A DNA stretch of 64,000 nucleotides from an uncultured Eubacteriales bacterium (GTDB taxonomy: Bacteria; Bacillota; Clostridia; TANB77; CAG-508), in NCBI GenBank assembly GCA_905203305.1, contig CAJKVH010000001.1:79069-143068 (forward strand). The letters run 5' to 3'. Under the pieces are notes generated by a model, which had not been told where the DNA came from, searched no databases, and worked only from the letters and a program-made list of their open reading frames with translations. Numbering within the stretch: the first letter of the stretch is position 1; the number at the start of each line of letters is the position of its first letter. Position numbers and translations under genes: made by a program. Below, piece after piece: positions 18,748-34,699 of the stretch.

Positions 18748-19131
18748 TTAGATTGTGACTTTAAATTTTTCATATTCACTATATAGACTAAGTGTACTTG
18801 AATTTTTTATTTCCATTTTAGGTATTAAATACATCTCTTTTTCTTTTGTTAATATAAAAATCAATTCTACATCTGTATTTTTTATTGTTTTATACGTTTT
18901 CCCACTTGTTCCTCCGCAGCTTTTTAACGCTACCTGATAATTTCCACCTTTTCCTATACATCCAGTTGATTTTACTTGAACTCTTTGCATAATACCGCTT
19001 CTTTCTACAATTAGATCATAATCTTGTGTGTCATTTAATGGAATTGAAACTGTATAACCATTTGTAGAAAAAAAAGCAATAGCCATACCTAATCCACTGT
19101 TACCTTTTTCTTTATTAGTTCTAAAATTCAT
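18748..19131 (-). CDS. Small PD-(D/E)xK nuclease, Hjc/resolvase-like
   Basis: The 127-aa product has a G-rich N-terminus followed by DYDLIVE...VQVKS, the pattern of Hjc-type PD-(D/E)xK endonucleases. It lies immediately downstream of the intron-containing tRNA. Confidence 0.4.
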   Translation of the reverse strand: MNFRTNKEKGNSGLGMAIAFFSTNGYTVSIPLNDTQDYDLIVERSGIMQRVQVKSTGCIGKGGNYQVALKSCGGTSGKTYKTIKNTDVELIFILTKEKEMYLIPKMEIKNSSTLSLYSEYEKFKVTI

Positions 19132-19149: not shown

Positions 19150-19195
19150 CTTTATTTTAATACAAAAAAAGAGCTCACAAACTCGAAAGCCTGTA
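19150..19195 (-). terminator. Rho-independent terminator downstream of tRNA-Tyr
   Basis: In RNA sense the sequence AGCUUACAGGC...UUUGUGAGCU forms a stem, followed by UCUUUUUUUG. Confidence 0.45.
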
Positions 19196-19211
19196 AGCTA
19201 TTTTCAATATA

Positions 19212-19518
19212 TGGTGGGCAGAGATGGATTCGAACCATCGTACGCTCTCGCGGCCAGATTTCTTACTACTATAGTTTTCACTACCATTTTAAATGTTTGT
19301 AGTCTGGACTTTCTCTTTATCTCTTTTGAGATACCAGGTATAAAGTCTCTACACTCGGAAATTTCTTTCCTAGCTCGGGATTATCATCAGCCTAACCTGT
19401 TAAGACTTCCCCGAATTAGCCTAGTTATCATCATATAATCACTTATATGAGCTGCAAATTTAGGTGTTCGTTACCAAAGACCACAGTCTGGTGCCATTAA
19501 CCACTCGACCACCTGCCC
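19212..19518 (-). tRNA. tRNA-Tyr(GUA) interrupted by a group I intron (exons 19483..19518 and 19212..19261)
   Basis: The acceptor GGGCAGG pairs with TCTGCCC, followed by discriminator A and CCA. The gene has a D-arm, a T-arm GATGGTTCGAATCCATC and a long variable arm CCGCGAGAGCGTAC (class II). The anticodon stem CCAGA/TCTGG is split, and the loop CTGT|AAA gives anticodon GTA. Confidence 0.75.
19262..19482 (-). ncRNA. Group I intron (IC3-like, 221 nt) inside the tRNA-Tyr anticodon
   Basis: The core elements are P AATTCGGGGAAG, Q AATCCCGAGC, R GTGTAGAGACTTTA and S AGAGAAAGTCC. The 5' exon ends in U and the intron ends in G. The core closely resembles the Azoarcus tRNA-Ile intron (GUGUAGAGACU, AAUUCGG.GAA). 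Confidence 0.7.
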
Positions 19519-19546
19519 AAATATGCTTTCCTCAAGCACGTTTTTT

Positions 19547-19575
19547 ATTATAAATGTTAACACGAAATTTGTCAA
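19547..19575 (-). promoter_or_regulatory. Sigma-A-type promoter for tRNA-Tyr (TTGACA, 17 nt, TATAAT)
   Basis: The minus-strand sequence reads TTGACAaatttcgtgttaacattTATAAT, about 30 nt upstream of tRNA position +1. Confidence 0.5.
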
Positions 19576-19676: not shown

Positions 19677-20504
19677 TTATAAATTATTTATTTCTTTTAT
19701 TGTTAAACCTGTTATATCTTTTATTGTTTTTGTATCAATTCCTTGTTCTTTCATCTTTTGGGCTATTTCTAATGTTTTCTTTTTTCCACCGTCATCTAAT
19801 CCTTTATCATACCCAGCATCCTCAATTGCCTTTTGATCCATAATATATTTTTCTCGTAATTCAGCAAGATATCTTTCTTTTCCATCTTGACTTATTTCTT
19901 CTAGTACTTTTTTGGCTTTTTTTATTTCTTTATTAGACATATCTATCACCTTCGAATCCTTTATAAATTTAACCCAAGGATCTAATGTTGAACCAGTTTT
20001 ATATTTCTCAAACTTGGGTAATTCTATTATATAAACTTCCATTGCATCTGTCAAGATAATGTTTCCATAGTCTTGTTCTCTAATATTCCATTTTGTCATA
20101 TATTTTTTAATTTCTTTTAAACTTTTGATTTCATAATCAGTTAATAAAATTGTGATAGACTTTTCTAATTTCGAATAATCTTGACCAGATGATAAGCTTT
20201 GAACATACATTTTACTACAATAAAATAGCACTCTTTTTTCTATGTTTTTCCTATCTACGACTTGCATCTCTATATCACAATTAATTGAATTATTAATTTT
20301 AGCTTTTATGTCTAATATTCCGATTTTATCGTCTAATACATCTTCTGGCAAAATGGTATTACAATCTAAAGTTACATCCGTTACCTCTTCTTTTAATATT
20401 GAACTTATAAAATTTTGTGTTATTGATTCATTTCCTTTGAATCCAAAAATTCGCTTGAATACATAATCTAGTTTTGGATTTAATAATTGTGTGTCTTTTA
20501 TAAT
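19677..20504 (-). CDS. Rpn/YhgA-like PD-(D/E)XK recombination-promoting nuclease (putative transposase family), with no ATG at the true N-terminus
   Basis: The stop-to-stop frame reads IIKDTQLLNPKLDYVFKRIFG...DDKIGILDIKAKI...CDIEMQ. Upstream of the first ATG (20351) lies a conserved N-terminus preceded by the RBS AAGGAG and ATT/ATA codons. Confidence 0.55.
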   Translation of the reverse strand: MIKDTQLLNPKLDYVFKRIFGFKGNESITQNFISSILKEEVTDVTLDCNTILPEDVLDDKIGILDIKAKINNSINCDIEMQVVDRKNIEKRVLFYCSKMYVQSLSSGQDYSKLEKSITILLTDYEIKSLKEIKKYMTKWNIREQDYGNIILTDAMEVYIIELPKFEKYKTGSTLDPWVKFIKDSKVIDMSNKEIKKAKKVLEEISQDGKERYLAELREKYIMDQKAIEDAGYDKGLDDGGKKKTLEIAQKMKEQGIDTKTIKDITGLTIKEINNL

Positions 20505-29596: not shown

Positions 29597-31248
29597 GGTA
29601 ATTCTCCTTCTATTGTAACTGTTACTACATCCCCGCTTTTTTGACTGCTAGAAGAAACTACATTTCCTAGTATTCCATCTACTTTTATTTTAGCTATAAA
29701 GTAACCTAATTGATCATAATCACCAGCTTGTGCTATAATCGCAATTTTCTTTCCTGTTGTATTTTGTATTGATGTAAGTTGAACACCTTCTGGTATTATA
29801 TACATTATTTGATTTAGTAAATTTGGTATTGAGTTTTTCATTTCCGCAATATTACTTATTTTATCATTTATAGCCTTTAATTCTTCTGTTAAAGAATTAT
29901 ATTTTGTATTTTTGGTATTTAATGAATTTATATCTGTATTTATTTTTGCTATTTCTGAATTTTCTGATGCTATTAATCCATCAACATCTTGTGACTTTTT
30001 CTCCATTTGGTTAAATAGTATTTTCGAAAATGCAATAAAAATTATATTTATCAATAAAATTGCAACTAATGCCCTTATCAACATTGTTTCTGTTTTGTCT
30101 AGCTTTCCTTTGAATGATAAATCCATTGAAGAAAAGCTTGGCATTATTTTTTTTAGTTTGCTTTCTTTTTTAGGTTTTGAAGAACTTTCCTTTTTCTTTC
30201 CTAGTGATACATCTGCACTTAAAAGTTGTTTTAATTGATCCATAAAGTTCGGTTTTCTAAAGTTTAAAGATTGTATTCCCTCTCCTAAAGCTTGCATTGC
30301 TAATGATATAGCACTATTTACCTCAATATAATCTTTTATATTTATTTGTGCAACATTAACTTCTATTATACTTGGTTTTAATATTTTACAATCTGCTTCT
30401 GGTAAAAATTCTTGAAAATATAAATCAACATTATTTATTACAGATAATGTACCTGTTAAATAAACTGTAGAAATTTTTACTGGTGAATTTTCAACTATTT
30501 CTTTAACTTTTTGACTTATTTGATATAAAGTTGGTATTATATCTTCTAAATGTTGTTGTTCTTTTGAATCATCTATAACATTTGCCGTATATATTGTTGT
30601 TCCTTTACAAATTTCATATGCTTTGCTCATAGAGTTTTCTGTTCTGTTTATTTTTTCAAGAACTTCTTGACTACCATGATCTATTGTTTCTACATTGTAA
30701 ATTTGTCTATCATATATTGATGTAATTGTTGTTTTTTCTTCCATGTTTACAATCAATACATTTTCTTTTTTTTCAAATCCTGTTATACTTGCTATTGCCG
30801 TTCCAATAGGTACAATTCCAGCAAGGTTATGCTTTTCTAAGTATTGTTTTTGTTTATTTAATTCTATTTTATTTACAATAACTTGTATTGCTTTTATTTT
30901 TTCTCTATCTTCTACATTAGAAACTAAAGCATATCTTGTTTCAAATGCTTTTTGATTATATTTGTTTTCATCACAAAATGTTTCAAATTCTGTTTCAACT
31001 GTTTTTTGTATATCACTTTTTGACAATAGTGCAAAAATGTTGTAGTATAAATAACTTTCGTTTGCAAGATTTATTGATATTGGTGTATTAAAGCTATATG
31101 TTTCTTCAACTATCTTTTTTATTGTTTCATTTATATTATCAAAAAATCTTATTCCAAATGATTCTACTTTGAAAGCATTTTTATCTTTAGAAACTTTTGC
31201 ATATTTTATTAAATTGTTTTCTATATATATTCCTAAACAATTTTGCAT
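29593..31248 (-). CDS. pilM: Type IV pilus assembly protein PilM (actin-like ATPase) fused to a C-terminal TM and coiled-coil PilN-like region
   Basis: The N-terminal half is actin-like. The C-terminal part has a TM helix (IRALVAILLINIIFIAF) followed by a coiled coil. Confidence 0.55.
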   Translation of the reverse strand: MQNCLGIYIENNLIKYAKVSKDKNAFKVESFGIRFFDNINETIKKIVEETYSFNTPISINLANESYLYYNIFALLSKSDIQKTVETEFETFCDENKYNQKAFETRYALVSNVEDREKIKAIQVIVNKIELNKQKQYLEKHNLAGIVPIGTAIASITGFEKKENVLIVNMEEKTTITSIYDRQIYNVETIDHGSQEVLEKINRTENSMSKAYEICKGTTIYTANVIDDSKEQQHLEDIIPTLYQISQKVKEIVENSPVKISTVYLTGTLSVINNVDLYFQEFLPEADCKILKPSIIEVNVAQINIKDYIEVNSAISLAMQALGEGIQSLNFRKPNFMDQLKQLLSADVSLGKKKESSSKPKKESKLKKIMPSFSSMDLSFKGKLDKTETMLIRALVAILLINIIFIAFSKILFNQMEKKSQDVDGLIASENSEIAKINTDINSLNTKNTKYNSLTEELKAINDKISNIAEMKNSIPNLLNQIMYIIPEGVQLTSIQNTTGKKIAIIAQAGDYDQLGYFIAKIKVDGILGNVVSSSSQKSGDVVTVTIEGELP

Positions 31249-31445
31249 TTTTGACGCTCCTTGCTTTTATTCTCTTGTTTTTTTTTGTTATTCTATCTTT
31301 TTTTATTTTATATGTTTTCCTTTTTAAAATCAATACCTTTTCTTAAAATGTAATATAAATGTAATATTGATGTAATATTATCATTTTTTGTAATAAGTAT
31401 GTATATTTTTTATCTAATTGGATATTATATTTTTAGAATTTATTT

Positions 31446-31941
31446 GTGTCTTTTCAATCTTTTTATGTTAAAGACAAGAAAGGAATGAGATTATTTATGA
31501 ATAATCCATTAGATACCCAAAAAGATTATCAAGAATATGTAAATCAGAAGTCACCAAACTCCCCTATTTTTAAAAACTGCATTAATGCATTCTTAATAGG
31601 TGGTCTTATTTGTTCAATTGGTCAAATTATTTTTTCATTTTGTAAGTATAAAGGCTTAGATGAAACATCAAGCGGTACAATAGTTTCTATCACATTAATA
31701 GCAATTAGTGCATTTTTAACAGCTCTAAATATTTTTAATAAAATAGGAAAAATTGCAGGCGCCCGGATCTCTAGTTCCAATAACAGGTTTTGCCAACTCT
31801 ATTGTTGCTCCTGCCATGGAATATAAATCCGAAGGCTATATAATGGGAGTTGGAGCAAAAATGTTTACAGTTGCAGGCCCTGTTCTTGTTTACGGCATAT
31901 CCACCGCCATTTTAGTAGGGCTCATTTATTGGATATTCTAA
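31446..31941 (+). pseudogene. spoVAC: Stage V sporulation protein AC, with one +1 frameshift
   Basis: LIGGLICSIGQ...KIGKIAGA is followed in the +1 frame by GSLVPITGFANSIVAPAMEY. The extra base lies in gcgcccgga at about 31762-31766. The likely start is ATG 31485, which has an RBS. Confidence 0.7.
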
Positions 31942-32005
31942 ATTCCCATTTGGGGACGGAGTTTTTCGGGGATTTCCCATTTGGGGACGGAGTTTTCAGG
32001 GGAAA
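31941..32005 (+). repeat. REP-like cluster C: 2 tandem units between spoVAC and spoVAD
   Basis: The cores lie at 31945 and 31976. The unit is read through by the spurious N-terminal extension of ORF 31929..32738. Confidence 0.85.
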
Positions 32006-32039
32006 GTATATTATTTCTATATATTTGAAAGGATTTTTT

Positions 32040-33043
32040 ATGAAAAAATTAGGAAAGCAAACTATTAAATTTGATACACCTCCAACTATTTTAGAAACTG
32101 CCTGTATTGCAGGACCTAAAGAATCTGATGGCCCTCTTTCTAAATATTTTGATCAATGCCTAAGTGATGAAATGTGGGGAGAAAAAAGTTGGGAAAAGGC
32201 TGAAAGTAAAATTGTTAAACAAACTGTTAATACATTAATTTCTAAATCTGGTATTCCTAACAATAAAATAGAATATTGTTTTGCAGGCGATTTACTTAAT
32301 CAATGTATCTCTTCAAGTTTTGGATTAAGAGAATTAAATGTTCCATTTTACGGTATATTTGGTGCATGTTCAACATTTGTTGAAGGTATGCAGCTTGCTT
32401 CTATTTTTATTGAAGGTGGAATTAATTATGCAATTTGCAGTGCATCAAGTCATTTTTGTAGTTCAGAAAGGCAATTTAGATTTCCGTTAGAACTTGGAAA
32501 TCAAAGACCTCCTACTGCTCAATGGACCGTTACCGCTTGTGGTAGTGCTATGCTTGCAAAGTCTGGAGAAGGTCCTTATATAACTCATATTACTACTGGA
32601 AAAATCGTGGACATGGGAATAAAAGATGCCAATAACATGGGAGCTGCTATGGCACCTGCTGCATTTGATACTCTAATGACTCATTTTTCTGATACTGGTA
32701 GAAAACCTACTTACTATGATGCAATTATAACACGGTGACTTAGGTCATATTGGCAAAGATATTTTAATTGATTTATGTTCAAATGCGCGGTTATAATATA
32801 CGCTCTGTATATAATGATTGTGGTGTTCTTATCTTTGATCAGTCAACTCAAGATACTCATTCTGGAGGTAGTGGATGTGGCTGTTGTGCAAGCGTTTTTT
32901 CTGGATATTTATTTCAACAATTAAAAGCAAAAAAGCTTAACAAAATTCTGCTTATTGCAACAGGTGCTCTTATGAATTCTATGAGCTCTCAGCAAGGTGA
33001 ATCTATCCCAGGAATCGCTCAAGCTATATCTATTGAAAATTAG
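32040..33043 (+). pseudogene. spoVAD: Stage V sporulation protein AD, with two +1 frameshifts
   Basis: MKKLGKQTIKF... continues to AIIT, then GDLGHIGKDILIDLCSNA, then GYNIRSVYNDCGVLIFD. The extra C's are at 32733-35 (aca c ggt) and 32788-90 (gcg c ggt). Confidence 0.7.
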
Positions 33044-33058
33044 AAAGGATTTGATTTT

Positions 33059-33445
33059 ATGGATTTTTGGCAAAATTTTGATTGGATGCTTTTACTTAGA
33101 TGTTTTATTGTTGGTGGTCTTATTTGTGTTATTGGACAAATTTTAATAGATAAAACTAAACTTACATCAGCAAGAATTTTAGTTTTATTTGTTACAGTGG
33201 GTACAATTCTTGGCGGTTTAGGAATTTATCCCTATCTAGTTAAATTTGCCGGTTGTGGTGCAACTGTTCCTCTAACTGGTTTTGGAAACAATCTTGCTAA
33301 AGGCACTATTGAAGCAGTTAAAGATATGGGCTTTTTAGGTATTTTTATAGGCGGATTAAAAGCTAGTGCTGGTGGAATTGCTGCTGCTGTCTTTTTTGGC
33401 TACATTGCCTCATTAATTTCAAAGCCTAAAATGAAAAAACAATGA
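33059..33445 (+). CDS. spoVAEb: Stage V sporulation protein AE (SpoVAEb)
   Basis: The 128-aa product is a SpoVAC/SpoVAEb-type membrane protein (FIVGGLICVIGQ, TGFGNNLAKG). Confidence 0.7.
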   Translation: MDFWQNFDWMLLLRCFIVGGLICVIGQILIDKTKLTSARILVLFVTVGTILGGLGIYPYLVKFAGCGATVPLTGFGNNLAKGTIEAVKDMGFLGIFIGGLKASAGGIAAAVFFGYIASLISKPKMKKQ

Positions 33446-33450
33446 TTCAC

Positions 33451-33517
33451 ATTTCCCATTTGGGGACGGAGATTTTTTGGGAAATCCCCTAAAATCTCCG
33501 TCCCCAAATGGGAAAAA
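33451..33517. repeat. REP-like cluster D: a perfect inverted pair of units forming a 24-bp-stem hairpin; likely bidirectional terminator between spoVAEb and ftsZ
   Basis: The sequence is TCCCATTTGGGGACGGAGATTTT ttgggaaatcccc TAAAATCTCCGTCCCCAAATGGGA, placed between two convergent genes. Confidence 0.8.
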
Positions 33518-33568
33518 GAAAGAAAAGCTAGAACTTTAATTTCTTAGCTTTTCTTTTTTGATTATGTA

Positions 33569-34699
33569 TTATAAAGTTTTATTTTTATTTTTTCTTAAAA
33601 ATGATGGTATATCTAAATCATTTTGTGAAGAACTTAAATCTTGACTAGATGGAATAGAACTTACTTTCTTTTCCCATGGTTTATTTCCATTTGTTCCTAA
33701 TGAGTCAAGAATTGGAGATTTCATATCATCTGGTTGGTCAAAACCTGTAGCAATAACTGTTATCTTGATTTCGTCTTGCATTTCTGGATCTATAACTGTA
33801 CCAAAGATAATGTTTGCTTCAGGGTCTACACTGCGTTGAATTAATTCAGCAGCTGTATTTACTTCTTGTAAACCTAAATCTTCACCACCTGTTATATTAA
33901 TTATTACTCCTCTTGCACCTTCTATTGATGTTTCTAGTAATGGACTTTGAATCGCTTCTTTTGCAGCATCTTCTGCTTTGTTTTCACCTGATGCACGTCC
34001 TGTTCCCATGTGTGCCATTCCTGTATTTAACATGATTGTTTTTACATCTGCAAAATCTAGGTTAACTGTTCCTGTAACTGTAATTAAGTCTGAAATACCT
34101 TGTACACCTTGTCTTAAAACATCATCTGCCATTAAGAACGCTTCTGCCATTGATGTTTTTCTATCTATAATTTGTAGTAATTTGTCATTTGGTATTACTA
34201 TTAATGTGTCTACTTTTGATTTTAAACTTTCAATTCCACGTTCTGCTTGTGCTAAACGTTTCTTTCCTTCAAATGTGAATGGTTTTGTAACAACTCCTAT
34301 TGTTAATATTCCCATTTCTTTAGCTAAACCTGCAACTATTGGTGCGGCACCAGTTCCTGTTCCTCCACCCATTCCGCAAGTTACAAATACCATGTCTGCT
34401 CCTCTTAATACTTCTGAAAGCTCTGTTTTACTTTCTTCTGCTGATTGAGCTCCTACGTCAGGATTTGCCCCTGCTCCTAGTCCTCTTGTTATTTTTTCTC
34501 CTATTTGGATTTTTGTACTTGCTTTTGATTTTTGTAGAGCTTGTCTATCTGTGTTTACTGCTATAAAATCAACAGATTTTATTCCTTGGTCAAGCATTCT
34601 GTTTACAGCGTTGTTTCCTGCTCCTCCTACACCTATTACTTTTATTGTTGCTGTTCCGTCCATCATTGTTAAGTTGCTGTTATCGTCAATATCCATCAT
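33569..34699 (-). CDS. ftsZ: Cell division protein FtsZ
   Basis: The protein carries GGGTGTG and the tubulin signature, with a C-terminal DIPSFLR peptide. Confidence 0.9.

Follow-up and report, generated by a model that had tools for sequence, protein, structure and literature searches.

What divides the anticodon of a tRNA-Tyr gene in an uncultured Eubacteriales bacterium, and is the small nuclease-like gene lying just behind it connected with the interruption? The gene is found in a 64,000-nucleotide stretch of contig CAJKVH010000001.1 (positions 79,069 to 143,068; this whole stretch is hereafter ‘the window’, its first letter being position 1), in a chromosomal region with a G + C content of about 28%; the features of the window given coordinates below are on the minus strand. 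ARAGORN places the 5′ exon at 19483..19518 (36 nt; the acceptor 5′ strand, D arm, 5′ strand of the anticodon stem and loop nucleotides C32, U33, G34 and U35, ending CUGU, the last residue being U-1) and the 3′ exon at 19212..19261 (50 nt; beginning AAAU with A36, and carrying the rest of the anticodon arm, a long variable arm, the T arm, the acceptor 3′ strand, A73 and an encoded CCA, ending ACCA). Between the two lie 221 nt with no open reading frame (ORF; 19262..19482), which we read, from the Rfam Intron_gpI model, covariation and a minimum free energy (MFE) fold, as a group I intron that splits the tRNA-Tyr(GUA) anticodon between U35 and A36 (site 35/36 in standard numbering; loop CUGU/AAA)—a reading to which we attach a probability of roughly 0.88.

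When joined, the exons are called by ARAGORN as tRNA-Tyr(gta), a class II tRNA of 86 nt whose cloverleaf has a G1–C72 pair, A73, a 3-bp D stem, the anticodon stem CCAGA/UCUGG, a long variable arm and the T arm GAUGG/CCAUC; in its intron mode, the program recovers the split gene unaided, as i(37,221). An earlier note on this DNA had described the same architecture, and its anatomy stands: the exon and intron positions and strings are exact to the base, the two halves do assemble into a class II tRNA-Tyr(GUA), and an intron-aware search of the kind that it proposed does find the gene. The insert also contains, as had been claimed, the P, Q, R and S elements of a group I core, each present once and in that order (intron nt 66–77, 101–110, 129–142 and 167–177).

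We built the secondary-structure model by hand, numbering the intron such that nucleotide n corresponds to window position 19483 − n. Reading from the 5′ end, we come first to an 8-nt internal guide sequence (IGS), AUUUGCAG (19452..19459), whose GCAG half (intron 28–31) pairs with the exon's CUGU to form the 4-bp P1, with a U-1·G28 wobble, and whose AUUU half (intron 24–27) pairs with the AAAU of the 3′ exon to form the 4-bp P10; the reverse complement of the IGS, CTGCAAAT, mismatches the ligated junction, CTGTAAAT, solely at the U·G wobble. There follow the P2 hairpin (19431..19450; intron 33–52), of 8 bp with a GUGA (GNRA) loop; the 5′ strand of P3, CUAGG (19420..19424), paired with CCUGG (19338–19334; intron 59–63 with 145–149); and P4 (UCGGGG/UCCCGA; intron 69–74 with 103–108), which closes around P5 and P5a (intron 78–99) in a segment (19375..19414) that holds the P and Q elements. 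P6 and P6a form a hairpin capped by a GAAA tetraloop (19353..19374; intron 109–130). In P7, presumed to be the guanosine-binding helix, the 5′ strand G-(A bulge)-GACUU within R (19343..19349; intron 134–140, with A135 bulged) pairs with AAGUCC within S (19311–19306; intron 172–177), making a pseudoknot with P3. The 6-bp P8 hairpin (19318..19333; intron 150–165) and a three-way P9 domain (19266..19302; intron 181–217), composed of P9 (CUAC/GUAG), P9a and P9b (UAGU-GAAA-ACUA, with a GAAA loop), complete the fold, and the last intron nucleotide is the ‘omega-G’ (19262; intron 221). All of the core helices from P3 to P8 can thus be drawn in canonical order with the P3/P7 pseudoknot in place; MFE folding, a method that cannot represent that pseudoknot, recovers P2, P4, P5a, P6a, P7, P8, P9a and P9b (−50.3 kcal/mol; z = −1.98).

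Homologues were collected by scanning viral contigs and one genome per GTDB species with a pattern from the 3′ core (the P9 domain), the 242 matches listed being passed to ARAGORN in intron mode (individual genomes, contigs and loci carry L-numbers here). Among these, tRNA-Tyr(GUA) is the host in at least 54 species-level genomes, all from the genome collection and none from the viral matches listed; the carriers are uncultured animal-gut bacteria whose metagenome-assembled genomes (MAGs) are labelled uncultured Clostridia, Clostridium sp., Eubacteriales, Bacilli or Faecousia and come from the guts of humans, ruminants, rabbits, chickens and mice. In all 55 tRNA-Tyr introns compared (that of the window and the 54 listed), the 5′ exon ends in CTGT, the intron in G and the 3′ exon begins AAAT, so that U-1 and omega-G, both pointed out in the earlier note, are conserved in 55 of 55. 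The 54 introns listed are 215–248 nt long, save for two of 602 nt. The closest species-representative genome among the matches listed is an uncultured Clostridia MAG (L177), with 97.7% identity over the tRNA and intron and 81–83% in the flanks; the interrupted gene also occurs on independent gut metagenome contigs at 98–100% identity, and loci of identical architecture are seen on many contigs from human-gut metagenomes.

The covariation test used 53 of these tRNA-Tyr introns, aligned with MAFFT and read against the hand-built model, with two controls: one in which pairing partners were slid by 1–3 columns and one of 500 shuffles. Cells are paired in 97.2% of cases against 37–44% when slid, pairs changed on both sides number 30 against 4–15, and the covariation score is 0.212 against 0.03–0.056. 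None of the 500 shuffles reaches the observed values for pairing or covariation; because the sequences are related this control overstates significance, and the slid control is the fairer of the two. Compensatory changes are seen in all 8 pairs of P2, 3 of 5 in P3 (variants CGUCG/CGACG and CAUCG/CGAUG in Bacilli copies), 4 of 6 in P8 (including U150–A165 to C–G) and 4 of 7 in the P6/P6a helix, as well as in three pairs of P9a, two of P5a and one of P9b (UAGC/GCUA); the P5 pair 78–99 covaries (UA, CG, AU), and P4, 100% paired, has one compensatory pair. We had at one stage drawn A58–U150 as a pair of P3, since replaced by U150–A165 in P8 because the latter covaries; an extension of P1 by intron nt 1–2, also considered, has no consistent covariation. 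At the splice sites, the U·G wobble and two further pairs of P1 are invariant in 53 of 53 introns and its C–G pair is kept in 51, three of the four P10 pairs are invariant across the 53, and P7 is 100% paired and likewise invariant.

The exons of the relatives tell a similar story, their acceptor and T stems having undergone changes that compensate one another (for example GGGTAGG/CCTGCCC, GGACAGG/CCTGTCC and GGGGAGA/TCTCCCC). In one of the Bacilli (L179) a Val-Thr-Tyr-Gln-Lys operon has the interrupted gene as its Tyr member, and in two others (L154 and L204) Gln and Lys follow it. In most Clostridia-type loci (e.g. among L131–L244), the interrupted tRNA-Tyr is immediately preceded by a tRNA-Met(CAT) gene (39 of the related loci listed), an arrangement that does not extend to the lineage of the window.

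A number of observations weigh against the group I assignment, or against details of it, and have to be set beside these results. Of the covariance-model match anticipated in the earlier note, the full-length alignment was obtained and the gathering score was not: a sensitive local search over 551 nt aligns 19473–19286 with the whole of Intron_gpI (RF00028; model positions 1–253) at 35.3 bits (E = 2.2e-7), where the gathering score is 50, and the corresponding scan of the entire window, with its filters, does not report the intron. P1 has just 4 bp; it and P4 barely vary, and covariation accordingly neither backs nor contradicts either helix. The invariance of P7 (in its 3′ strand), P9 and P9b is in part a product of the search pattern, and placement in subgroup IC3 as opposed to IA is a matter of resemblance. 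The sub-threshold score carries little weight, because two classical cyanobacterial tRNA-Leu(UAA) introns reach 52.9 and 46.3 bits with the same model and because Williams 2020 (bioRxiv 10.1101/2020.01.27.920355), which records that the Rfam seeds include none from bacteria, used a cut-off of about 20 bits. Default ARAGORN and an Rfam run at the gathering threshold make no call for gene or intron in the window; we take these negatives as limits of method, overridden by ARAGORN in intron mode and by the local Rfam scan, and it follows from the blank default runs that a gene of this kind would normally be missed.

As to subtype, the intron appears to belong with the small introns of bacterial tRNA genes and would be described as IC3-like by resemblance, through its R/S core and a P9 domain like that of tRNA-Leu(UAA) introns. 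The earlier note had likened the core to that of the small Azoarcus-type tRNA introns, and P7 (G134-(A135)-GACUU/AAGUCC) does coincide with the R and S strings of classical tRNA introns in the seed alignment of Williams 2020, its 3′ strand being partly fixed by our search pattern. For comparison, 81% of bacterial tRNA introns belong to subgroup IC, and nearly all of those in Patescibacteria to IA (PMC13011429).

The structure points to probable self-splicing by the guanosine-initiated, two-step transesterification typical of the group, which we would expect to run as follows. In the precursor, the IGS would pair with the exon's CUGU to form P1 and set the U·G wobble at the splice site; an external guanosine held in P7 would attack after U35; the terminal omega-G would then take the place of that guanosine in P7, with P10 (AUUU with exon AAAU) positioning the 3′ exon; and ligation of the exons would yield the 86-nt tRNA with the anticodon loop CUGUAAA. 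Splicing at 35/36 has been demonstrated experimentally for introns of Asn and Asp tRNAs (PMC13011429). The best explanation of the comparative data, in our view, is that a clade of uncultured animal-gut Clostridia has conserved this as a probably functional tRNA-Tyr gene, with an intron that has mostly been inherited along with it.

The tRNA-Tyr locus is a stand-alone transcription unit, consisting of promoter, leader, gene and terminator. The sigma-70-type promoter (19547..19575; TTGACA-17 nt-TATAAT) matches the consensus at 12 of 12 positions and is the sole perfect one in the region; a 28-nt leader (19519..19546) separates it from the tRNA; and an intrinsic-terminator-like hairpin with T run (19162..19199, the hairpin itself at 19199–19172) lies 3′ of the tRNA and is the sole such site in the region, where shuffles lead one to expect 0.4. 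The 64-kb window (default ARAGORN) contains no other tRNA gene, and neither do the 20-kb loci from its species; the 8-kb loci of the relatives likewise have no second tRNA-Tyr.

Beyond the terminator, with its start 80 nt after the tRNA, lies an intact, free-standing gene for a 127-residue protein (18748..19131) that Pfam assigns to PF11645, the I-Ssp6803I family of PD-(D/E)XK endonucleases (66.8 bits against a cut-off of 26.1). Its sole relative in the PDB is 2ost_A (E = 6e-5); entry 2OST we take to be I-Ssp6803I, a homing endonuclease encoded in the tRNA-fMet intron of Synechocystis. Across 19 relatives D39 and Q52-V-K54 never vary, and they align with identical residues of 2ost_A (the YDL...VQVK motif), and a median ratio of non-synonymous to synonymous substitution rates (dN/dS) of 0.23 over 29 intact ORFs indicates purifying selection.

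The gene's association with the intron can be viewed from either side. Starting from the introns listed, the endonuclease-like gene follows directly downstream, in the same orientation, at 31 of the 49 loci that could be assessed, mostly across a gap of 56–110 nt, and inside the intron in 2 of the 49; 6 further loci are truncated. Starting from the endonuclease, 54 of the 65 metagenome loci with enough upstream sequence are immediately preceded by an intron-bearing tRNA-Tyr, a further 3 by a tRNA-Tyr without an intron, and the remaining 8, some of which show a mobile element or truncation at the 3′ end of the tRNA, by neither. The two intron-internal copies are those of the 602-nt introns, from Bacilli MAGs L154 and L204, in which a 137-residue ORF occupies the P1 loop; the L154 ORF is 58% identical to the window's protein (E = 3e-49), and the internal copies are nearest to the free-standing copy of their own Bacilli lineage (72% identity, against 53–63% for Clostridia copies). 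All told, members of the family stand beside or inside tRNA-Tyr genes at more than 90 loci. PF11645 genes have also been described inside tRNA-fMet and tRNA-Arg(UCU) introns (PMC13011429).

Relatives of the endonuclease with 44–58% identity also occur in phage tRNA arrays on five viral contigs (L341, L342, L343, L346 and L347), where the gene often ends 8–80 nt upstream of a Tyr-type anticodon stem-loop. On another viral contig (L349, positions 2341–2932), two tRNA-Tyr halves, split in the anticodon loop, are parted by an insert of about 500 nt with CTGTA repeats on its flanks, which contains an odd tRNA-Tyr-like gene and a PF11645 gene and no ribozyme; this looks like an endonuclease cassette at the usual site of the intron, and we reject the ARAGORN call of an endonuclease inside a 507-nt tRNA-Tyr intron as an artefact.

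What, then, is the gene doing there? The likeliest reading, on which we would lay roughly even odds, is that this putative PD-(D/E)XK nuclease serves, or once served, the ORF-less intron as its partner in mobility, with tRNA-Tyr genes as the target; its role in mobility, its activity and its target are deduced from sequence. The protein would be expressed at a low level, perhaps by read-through of the terminator, and would act on tRNA-Tyr genes. More specifically, intron and downstream gene may together constitute a two-part ‘collaborative homing’ system on a bacterial chromosomal tRNA gene, a proposal that we put forward tentatively, at somewhat under an even chance. The arrangement that such a system implies, an ORF-less intron with an adjacent free-standing endonuclease gene, is that of the 31 intron-ascertained and 54 endonuclease-ascertained loci counted above. 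If this is correct, the loci would display successive stages: the endonuclease alone beside an intron-less tRNA-Tyr (L278, L279, L310 and the phage arrays); next the endonuclease together with an ORF-less intron (the window and most relatives); capture, with the endonuclease in the P1 loop of the intron (L154 and L204); and loss, with the intron alone (16 loci listed). Surveys that count only intron-internal endonuclease genes would then underestimate the mobility of bacterial tRNA introns.

The partnership has its own difficulties. The gene is absent from those same 16 of the 49 assessable intron-bearing loci listed, and PF11645 genes stand 68–83 nt downstream of an intron-less tRNA-Tyr(GUA) in three metagenome loci (L278, L279 and L310) and one viral locus (L353). 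The intron-less alleles of L279 and L310 have anticodon-stem differences; the exons of L278 are identical to those of intron-bearing alleles, and this is hard to square with an intron that protects its host gene from the nuclease. Because intron-less loci carry the endonuclease gene, intron-based immunity is not established.

There is a different account, in which the PD-(D/E)XK gene is an independent nuclease, selfish or domesticated, that homes to tRNA-Tyr or to its 3′ flank, and in which its co-occurrence with the intron is hitch-hiking. We regard it as a serious possibility that nonetheless falls a little short of an even chance. All four combinations of intron and endonuclease, present or absent, do exist; the L278 gene lies beside an intron-less tRNA-Tyr whose exons are those of intron-bearing alleles; the copies on phage contigs lie beside tRNA-Tyr-like genes that have no intron; and a terminator stands between the tRNA and the endonuclease gene. 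What this account explains less readily is that an intron-bearing tRNA-Tyr immediately precedes the gene in 54 of 65 endonuclease-ascertained loci, that the same protein family is found inside the same intron in L154 and L204 in copies nearest to the free-standing one of the same lineage, and that PF11645 relatives are intron-encoded in tRNA-fMet and tRNA-Arg(UCU) introns (PMC13011429).

A further suggestion accepts the group I intron as genuine and supposes that it splices inefficiently alone and depends on a protein in the cell, perhaps with its PD-(D/E)XK neighbour as the maturase; this would account for the conserved adjacency, and the short, 4-bp P1, the AT-rich intron and a protein under purifying selection beside the tRNA gene in most relatives all fit with it. 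We nevertheless consider it improbable: the 16 intron-bearing loci that lack a nearby endonuclease gene would have to manage without the helper, and the PF11645 protein is found also beside intron-less tRNA-Tyr genes and in phage tRNA arrays. Maturases are known among LAGLIDADG proteins, and none is known of the PD-(D/E)XK type. In favour of the suggestion, some homing endonucleases double as maturases (PMC3384342); against it, small tRNA introns of a similar type self-splice in vitro (PMC13011429).

Least probable is that we are looking at a dead, non-splicing insert in a tRNA pseudogene, with another tRNA-Tyr elsewhere serving the cell, since, although the Rfam score is below the gathering threshold and the 64 kb in view contain no other tRNA, the remainder of the genome lying outside it, the exons and intron are kept in at least 55 loci from different species, where tRNA stems and intron helices alike have undergone compensatory change, U-1, omega-G and the IGS are invariant, the gene has a perfect promoter before it and a terminator after it, the interrupted gene fills the Tyr slot of the Bacilli operon, and no 8-kb locus holds a second tRNA-Tyr. 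We therefore retain a group I intron in a probably working tRNA-Tyr gene as the reading of this locus.

Introns related to that of the window are by no means confined to tRNA-Tyr. Among the matches listed, 66 interrupt tRNA-Leu(UAA), as do 12 more on viral contigs that ARAGORN miscalls as ‘tRNA-Tyr(ata)’ by placing the splice site 2 nt out; Arg(UCU), Thr(UGU), Met(CAU), Asn(GUU) and other tRNAs are also hosts. On viral contigs (L011–L130), about 61 of the 121 matches listed are tRNA-Leu(UAA) introns, others lying in Arg(UCU), Asn(GUU), Met(CAU) and Phe(GAA) tRNA genes; some of these contigs may be prophages or mis-binned. A 2014 review placed every phage intron then known in a protein-coding gene. 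On genome contigs (L131–L250), the intron 3′ core also splits Thr(UGU), Arg(UCU), Arg(CCU), Met(CAU), Ser(UGA) and other tRNA genes, in taxa that include Patescibacteria, Acidobacteriota, Gammaproteobacteria and cyanobacterial MAGs. Matches listed outside any recognisable tRNA number 8 for genomes and 19 for viruses. BLAST against phage genomes returned group I introns only, namely in a split capsid gene, a split NrdD gene, a helicase gene (with a GIY endonuclease) and a 286-nt ‘tRNA-Arg’; the introns in phage genes and that of the window have a common 3′ core, GTCCAGACNACAAA...GGTAGNGAAANCTATAG, and the window's intron shares its P9-domain sequence with the phage-gene group I introns and with tRNA-Leu(UAA) introns. 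BLAST against plasmids gave short, irrelevant matches to the tRNA 3′ end.

The surroundings of the locus comprise type IV pilus genes, a ROK kinase and an Rpn-family gene upstream, and an ABC transporter downstream. The Rpn-family gene (19677–20351), a PD-(D/E)XK_2 ‘transposase’ just upstream of the tRNA promoter, varies between strains, being absent in L006 and split into two ORFs in L004 and L253. In some strains of the same species as the window (L001 and L257/L258), a mobilizable element of more than 10 kb lies between the tRNA-Tyr 3′ end and the endonuclease gene (window ~19212–19132), with genes for a serine recombinase, a relaxase, a NikA-like protein and TnpV, and a cargo that includes DUF1016/YhcG and a 444-aa ORF; such loci become similar to the window again only in the tRNA's last ~5 nt. 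We at first scored the tRNA as absent from L001, a call rejected on finding that this element separates its 3′ end from the endonuclease gene. Elsewhere in the window, a stretch resembling a ribosomal protein L20 leader, with a match over the full length of the model, lies at 51420–51557 (42.3 bits against a gathering score of 58.7; E = 6e-5); two unrelated models of eukaryotic microRNA precursors match the same ~70-nt stretch at 33446–33520 (43.5 and 38.6 bits), probably a strong hairpin or repeat; and the GC skew, otherwise uniformly negative, flips sign locally at 32–34 kb and 52–54 kb (30000–34000 and 52000–54000).

As for novelty, the earlier note was too generous. It knew of no tRNA-Tyr case and of no 35/36 intron in a Firmicute; both are on record, the first as Tyr.4Ug in Williams 2020, and the survey in mSystems of 2026 (PMC13011429) lists one Tyr(GUA) intron at 35/36 together with one Bacillota_A intron at that site. 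The class having been described already in these two studies, the intron of the window is an ordinary member of a known, if little-studied, class. The hosts named in the note (Leu, fMet, Ile and Arg) are the four classical ones, since extended by Williams 2020 to 21 classes. Nor is the Tyr intron rare: it is common in uncultured gut Clostridia and Bacilli (at least 54 species-level genomes), and far commoner in MAGs than surveys of complete genomes suggest, with 54 of the 120 genome matches listed against a single Bacillota_A 35/36 case in 4,934 complete genomes. In the literature searched, we found no description of this abundance in uncultured gut Clostridia and Bacilli, of a tRNA-Leu-type P9 domain in the Tyr-intron lineage (as against the published Tyr seed), or of a conserved free-standing PF11645 gene by tRNA-Tyr.

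The interest of the locus, moderate overall, thus lies mainly in the endonuclease association and in a blind spot of annotation, which may lead to the genomes of an entire clade of uncultured gut Clostridia and Bacilli being recorded without a tRNA-Tyr. If the window's gene is the sole tRNA-Tyr of its genome, all decoding of tyrosine hangs on a ribozyme. The intron, its free-standing I-Ssp6803I-family gene and the intron-internal variants would together offer a bacterial test system for how composite mobile introns arise.

Set against known systems, the closest counterpart is Tyr.4Ug, represented in the Williams 2020 seed by the row ‘Mba143.Tyr.4Ug’: both are tRNA-Tyr introns inserted after the fourth nucleotide of the anticodon loop (CUGU/...g/AAA; 35/36), with U-1, omega-G and an IGS ending UUGCAG, and in host, loop position and terminal residues the window's intron agrees with the definition of that class. 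The two part company in P9, which is a simple hairpin in the Tyr.4Ug seed and a three-way domain in the window (CUAC...GUAG, with a GAAA hairpin), as it is in the Ser.3Ug, Lys.4Ug and Leu.2Ug rows of the same seed and in tRNA-Leu(UAA) introns. With the classical IC3 introns (Azoarcus tRNA-Ile(CAU), and cyanobacterial and plastid tRNA-Leu(UAA)) it shares a size of ~200–250 nt, the lack of an ORF, a site in the anticodon loop, the R/S core (GUGUAGAGACU.../...AGUCC), tetraloops at L2, L6a and L9b and, at the 3′ end, the P9 domain of the tRNA-Leu(UAA) introns; it differs in host tRNA, in site (34/35 in Leu, 36/37 in Ile) and in being AT-rich. The 35/36 introns of the mSystems survey likewise lie between the second and third anticodon bases and are missed by standard annotation, and self-splicing in vitro has been demonstrated for them; they are nearly all of subgroup IA and from a different phylum, and their endonuclease genes, when present, are of the HNH family and inside the intron (PMC13011429).

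On the side of the endonuclease, the window's protein belongs to the same PF11645 family as I-Ssp6803I and keeps its YDL...VQVK motif, yet the gene stands free, 80 nt beyond the tRNA rather than within an intron, and the tRNA is a different one. I-Ssp6803I reportedly targets the anticodon region of a tRNA gene. It recognises a 23-bp pseudo-palindrome as a tetramer (PMC3384342). Lastly, the collaborative homing model, reviewed in Hausner et al. 2014, predicts as its end state an endonuclease gene inside the intron. The locus described here is alike in its ORF-less intron and in the free-standing endonuclease gene beside the interrupted gene, and related loci do display the predicted end state; the known cases, however, concern phage protein-coding genes and other families of nuclease, whereas in the window the interrupted gene is that of a bacterial chromosomal tRNA.

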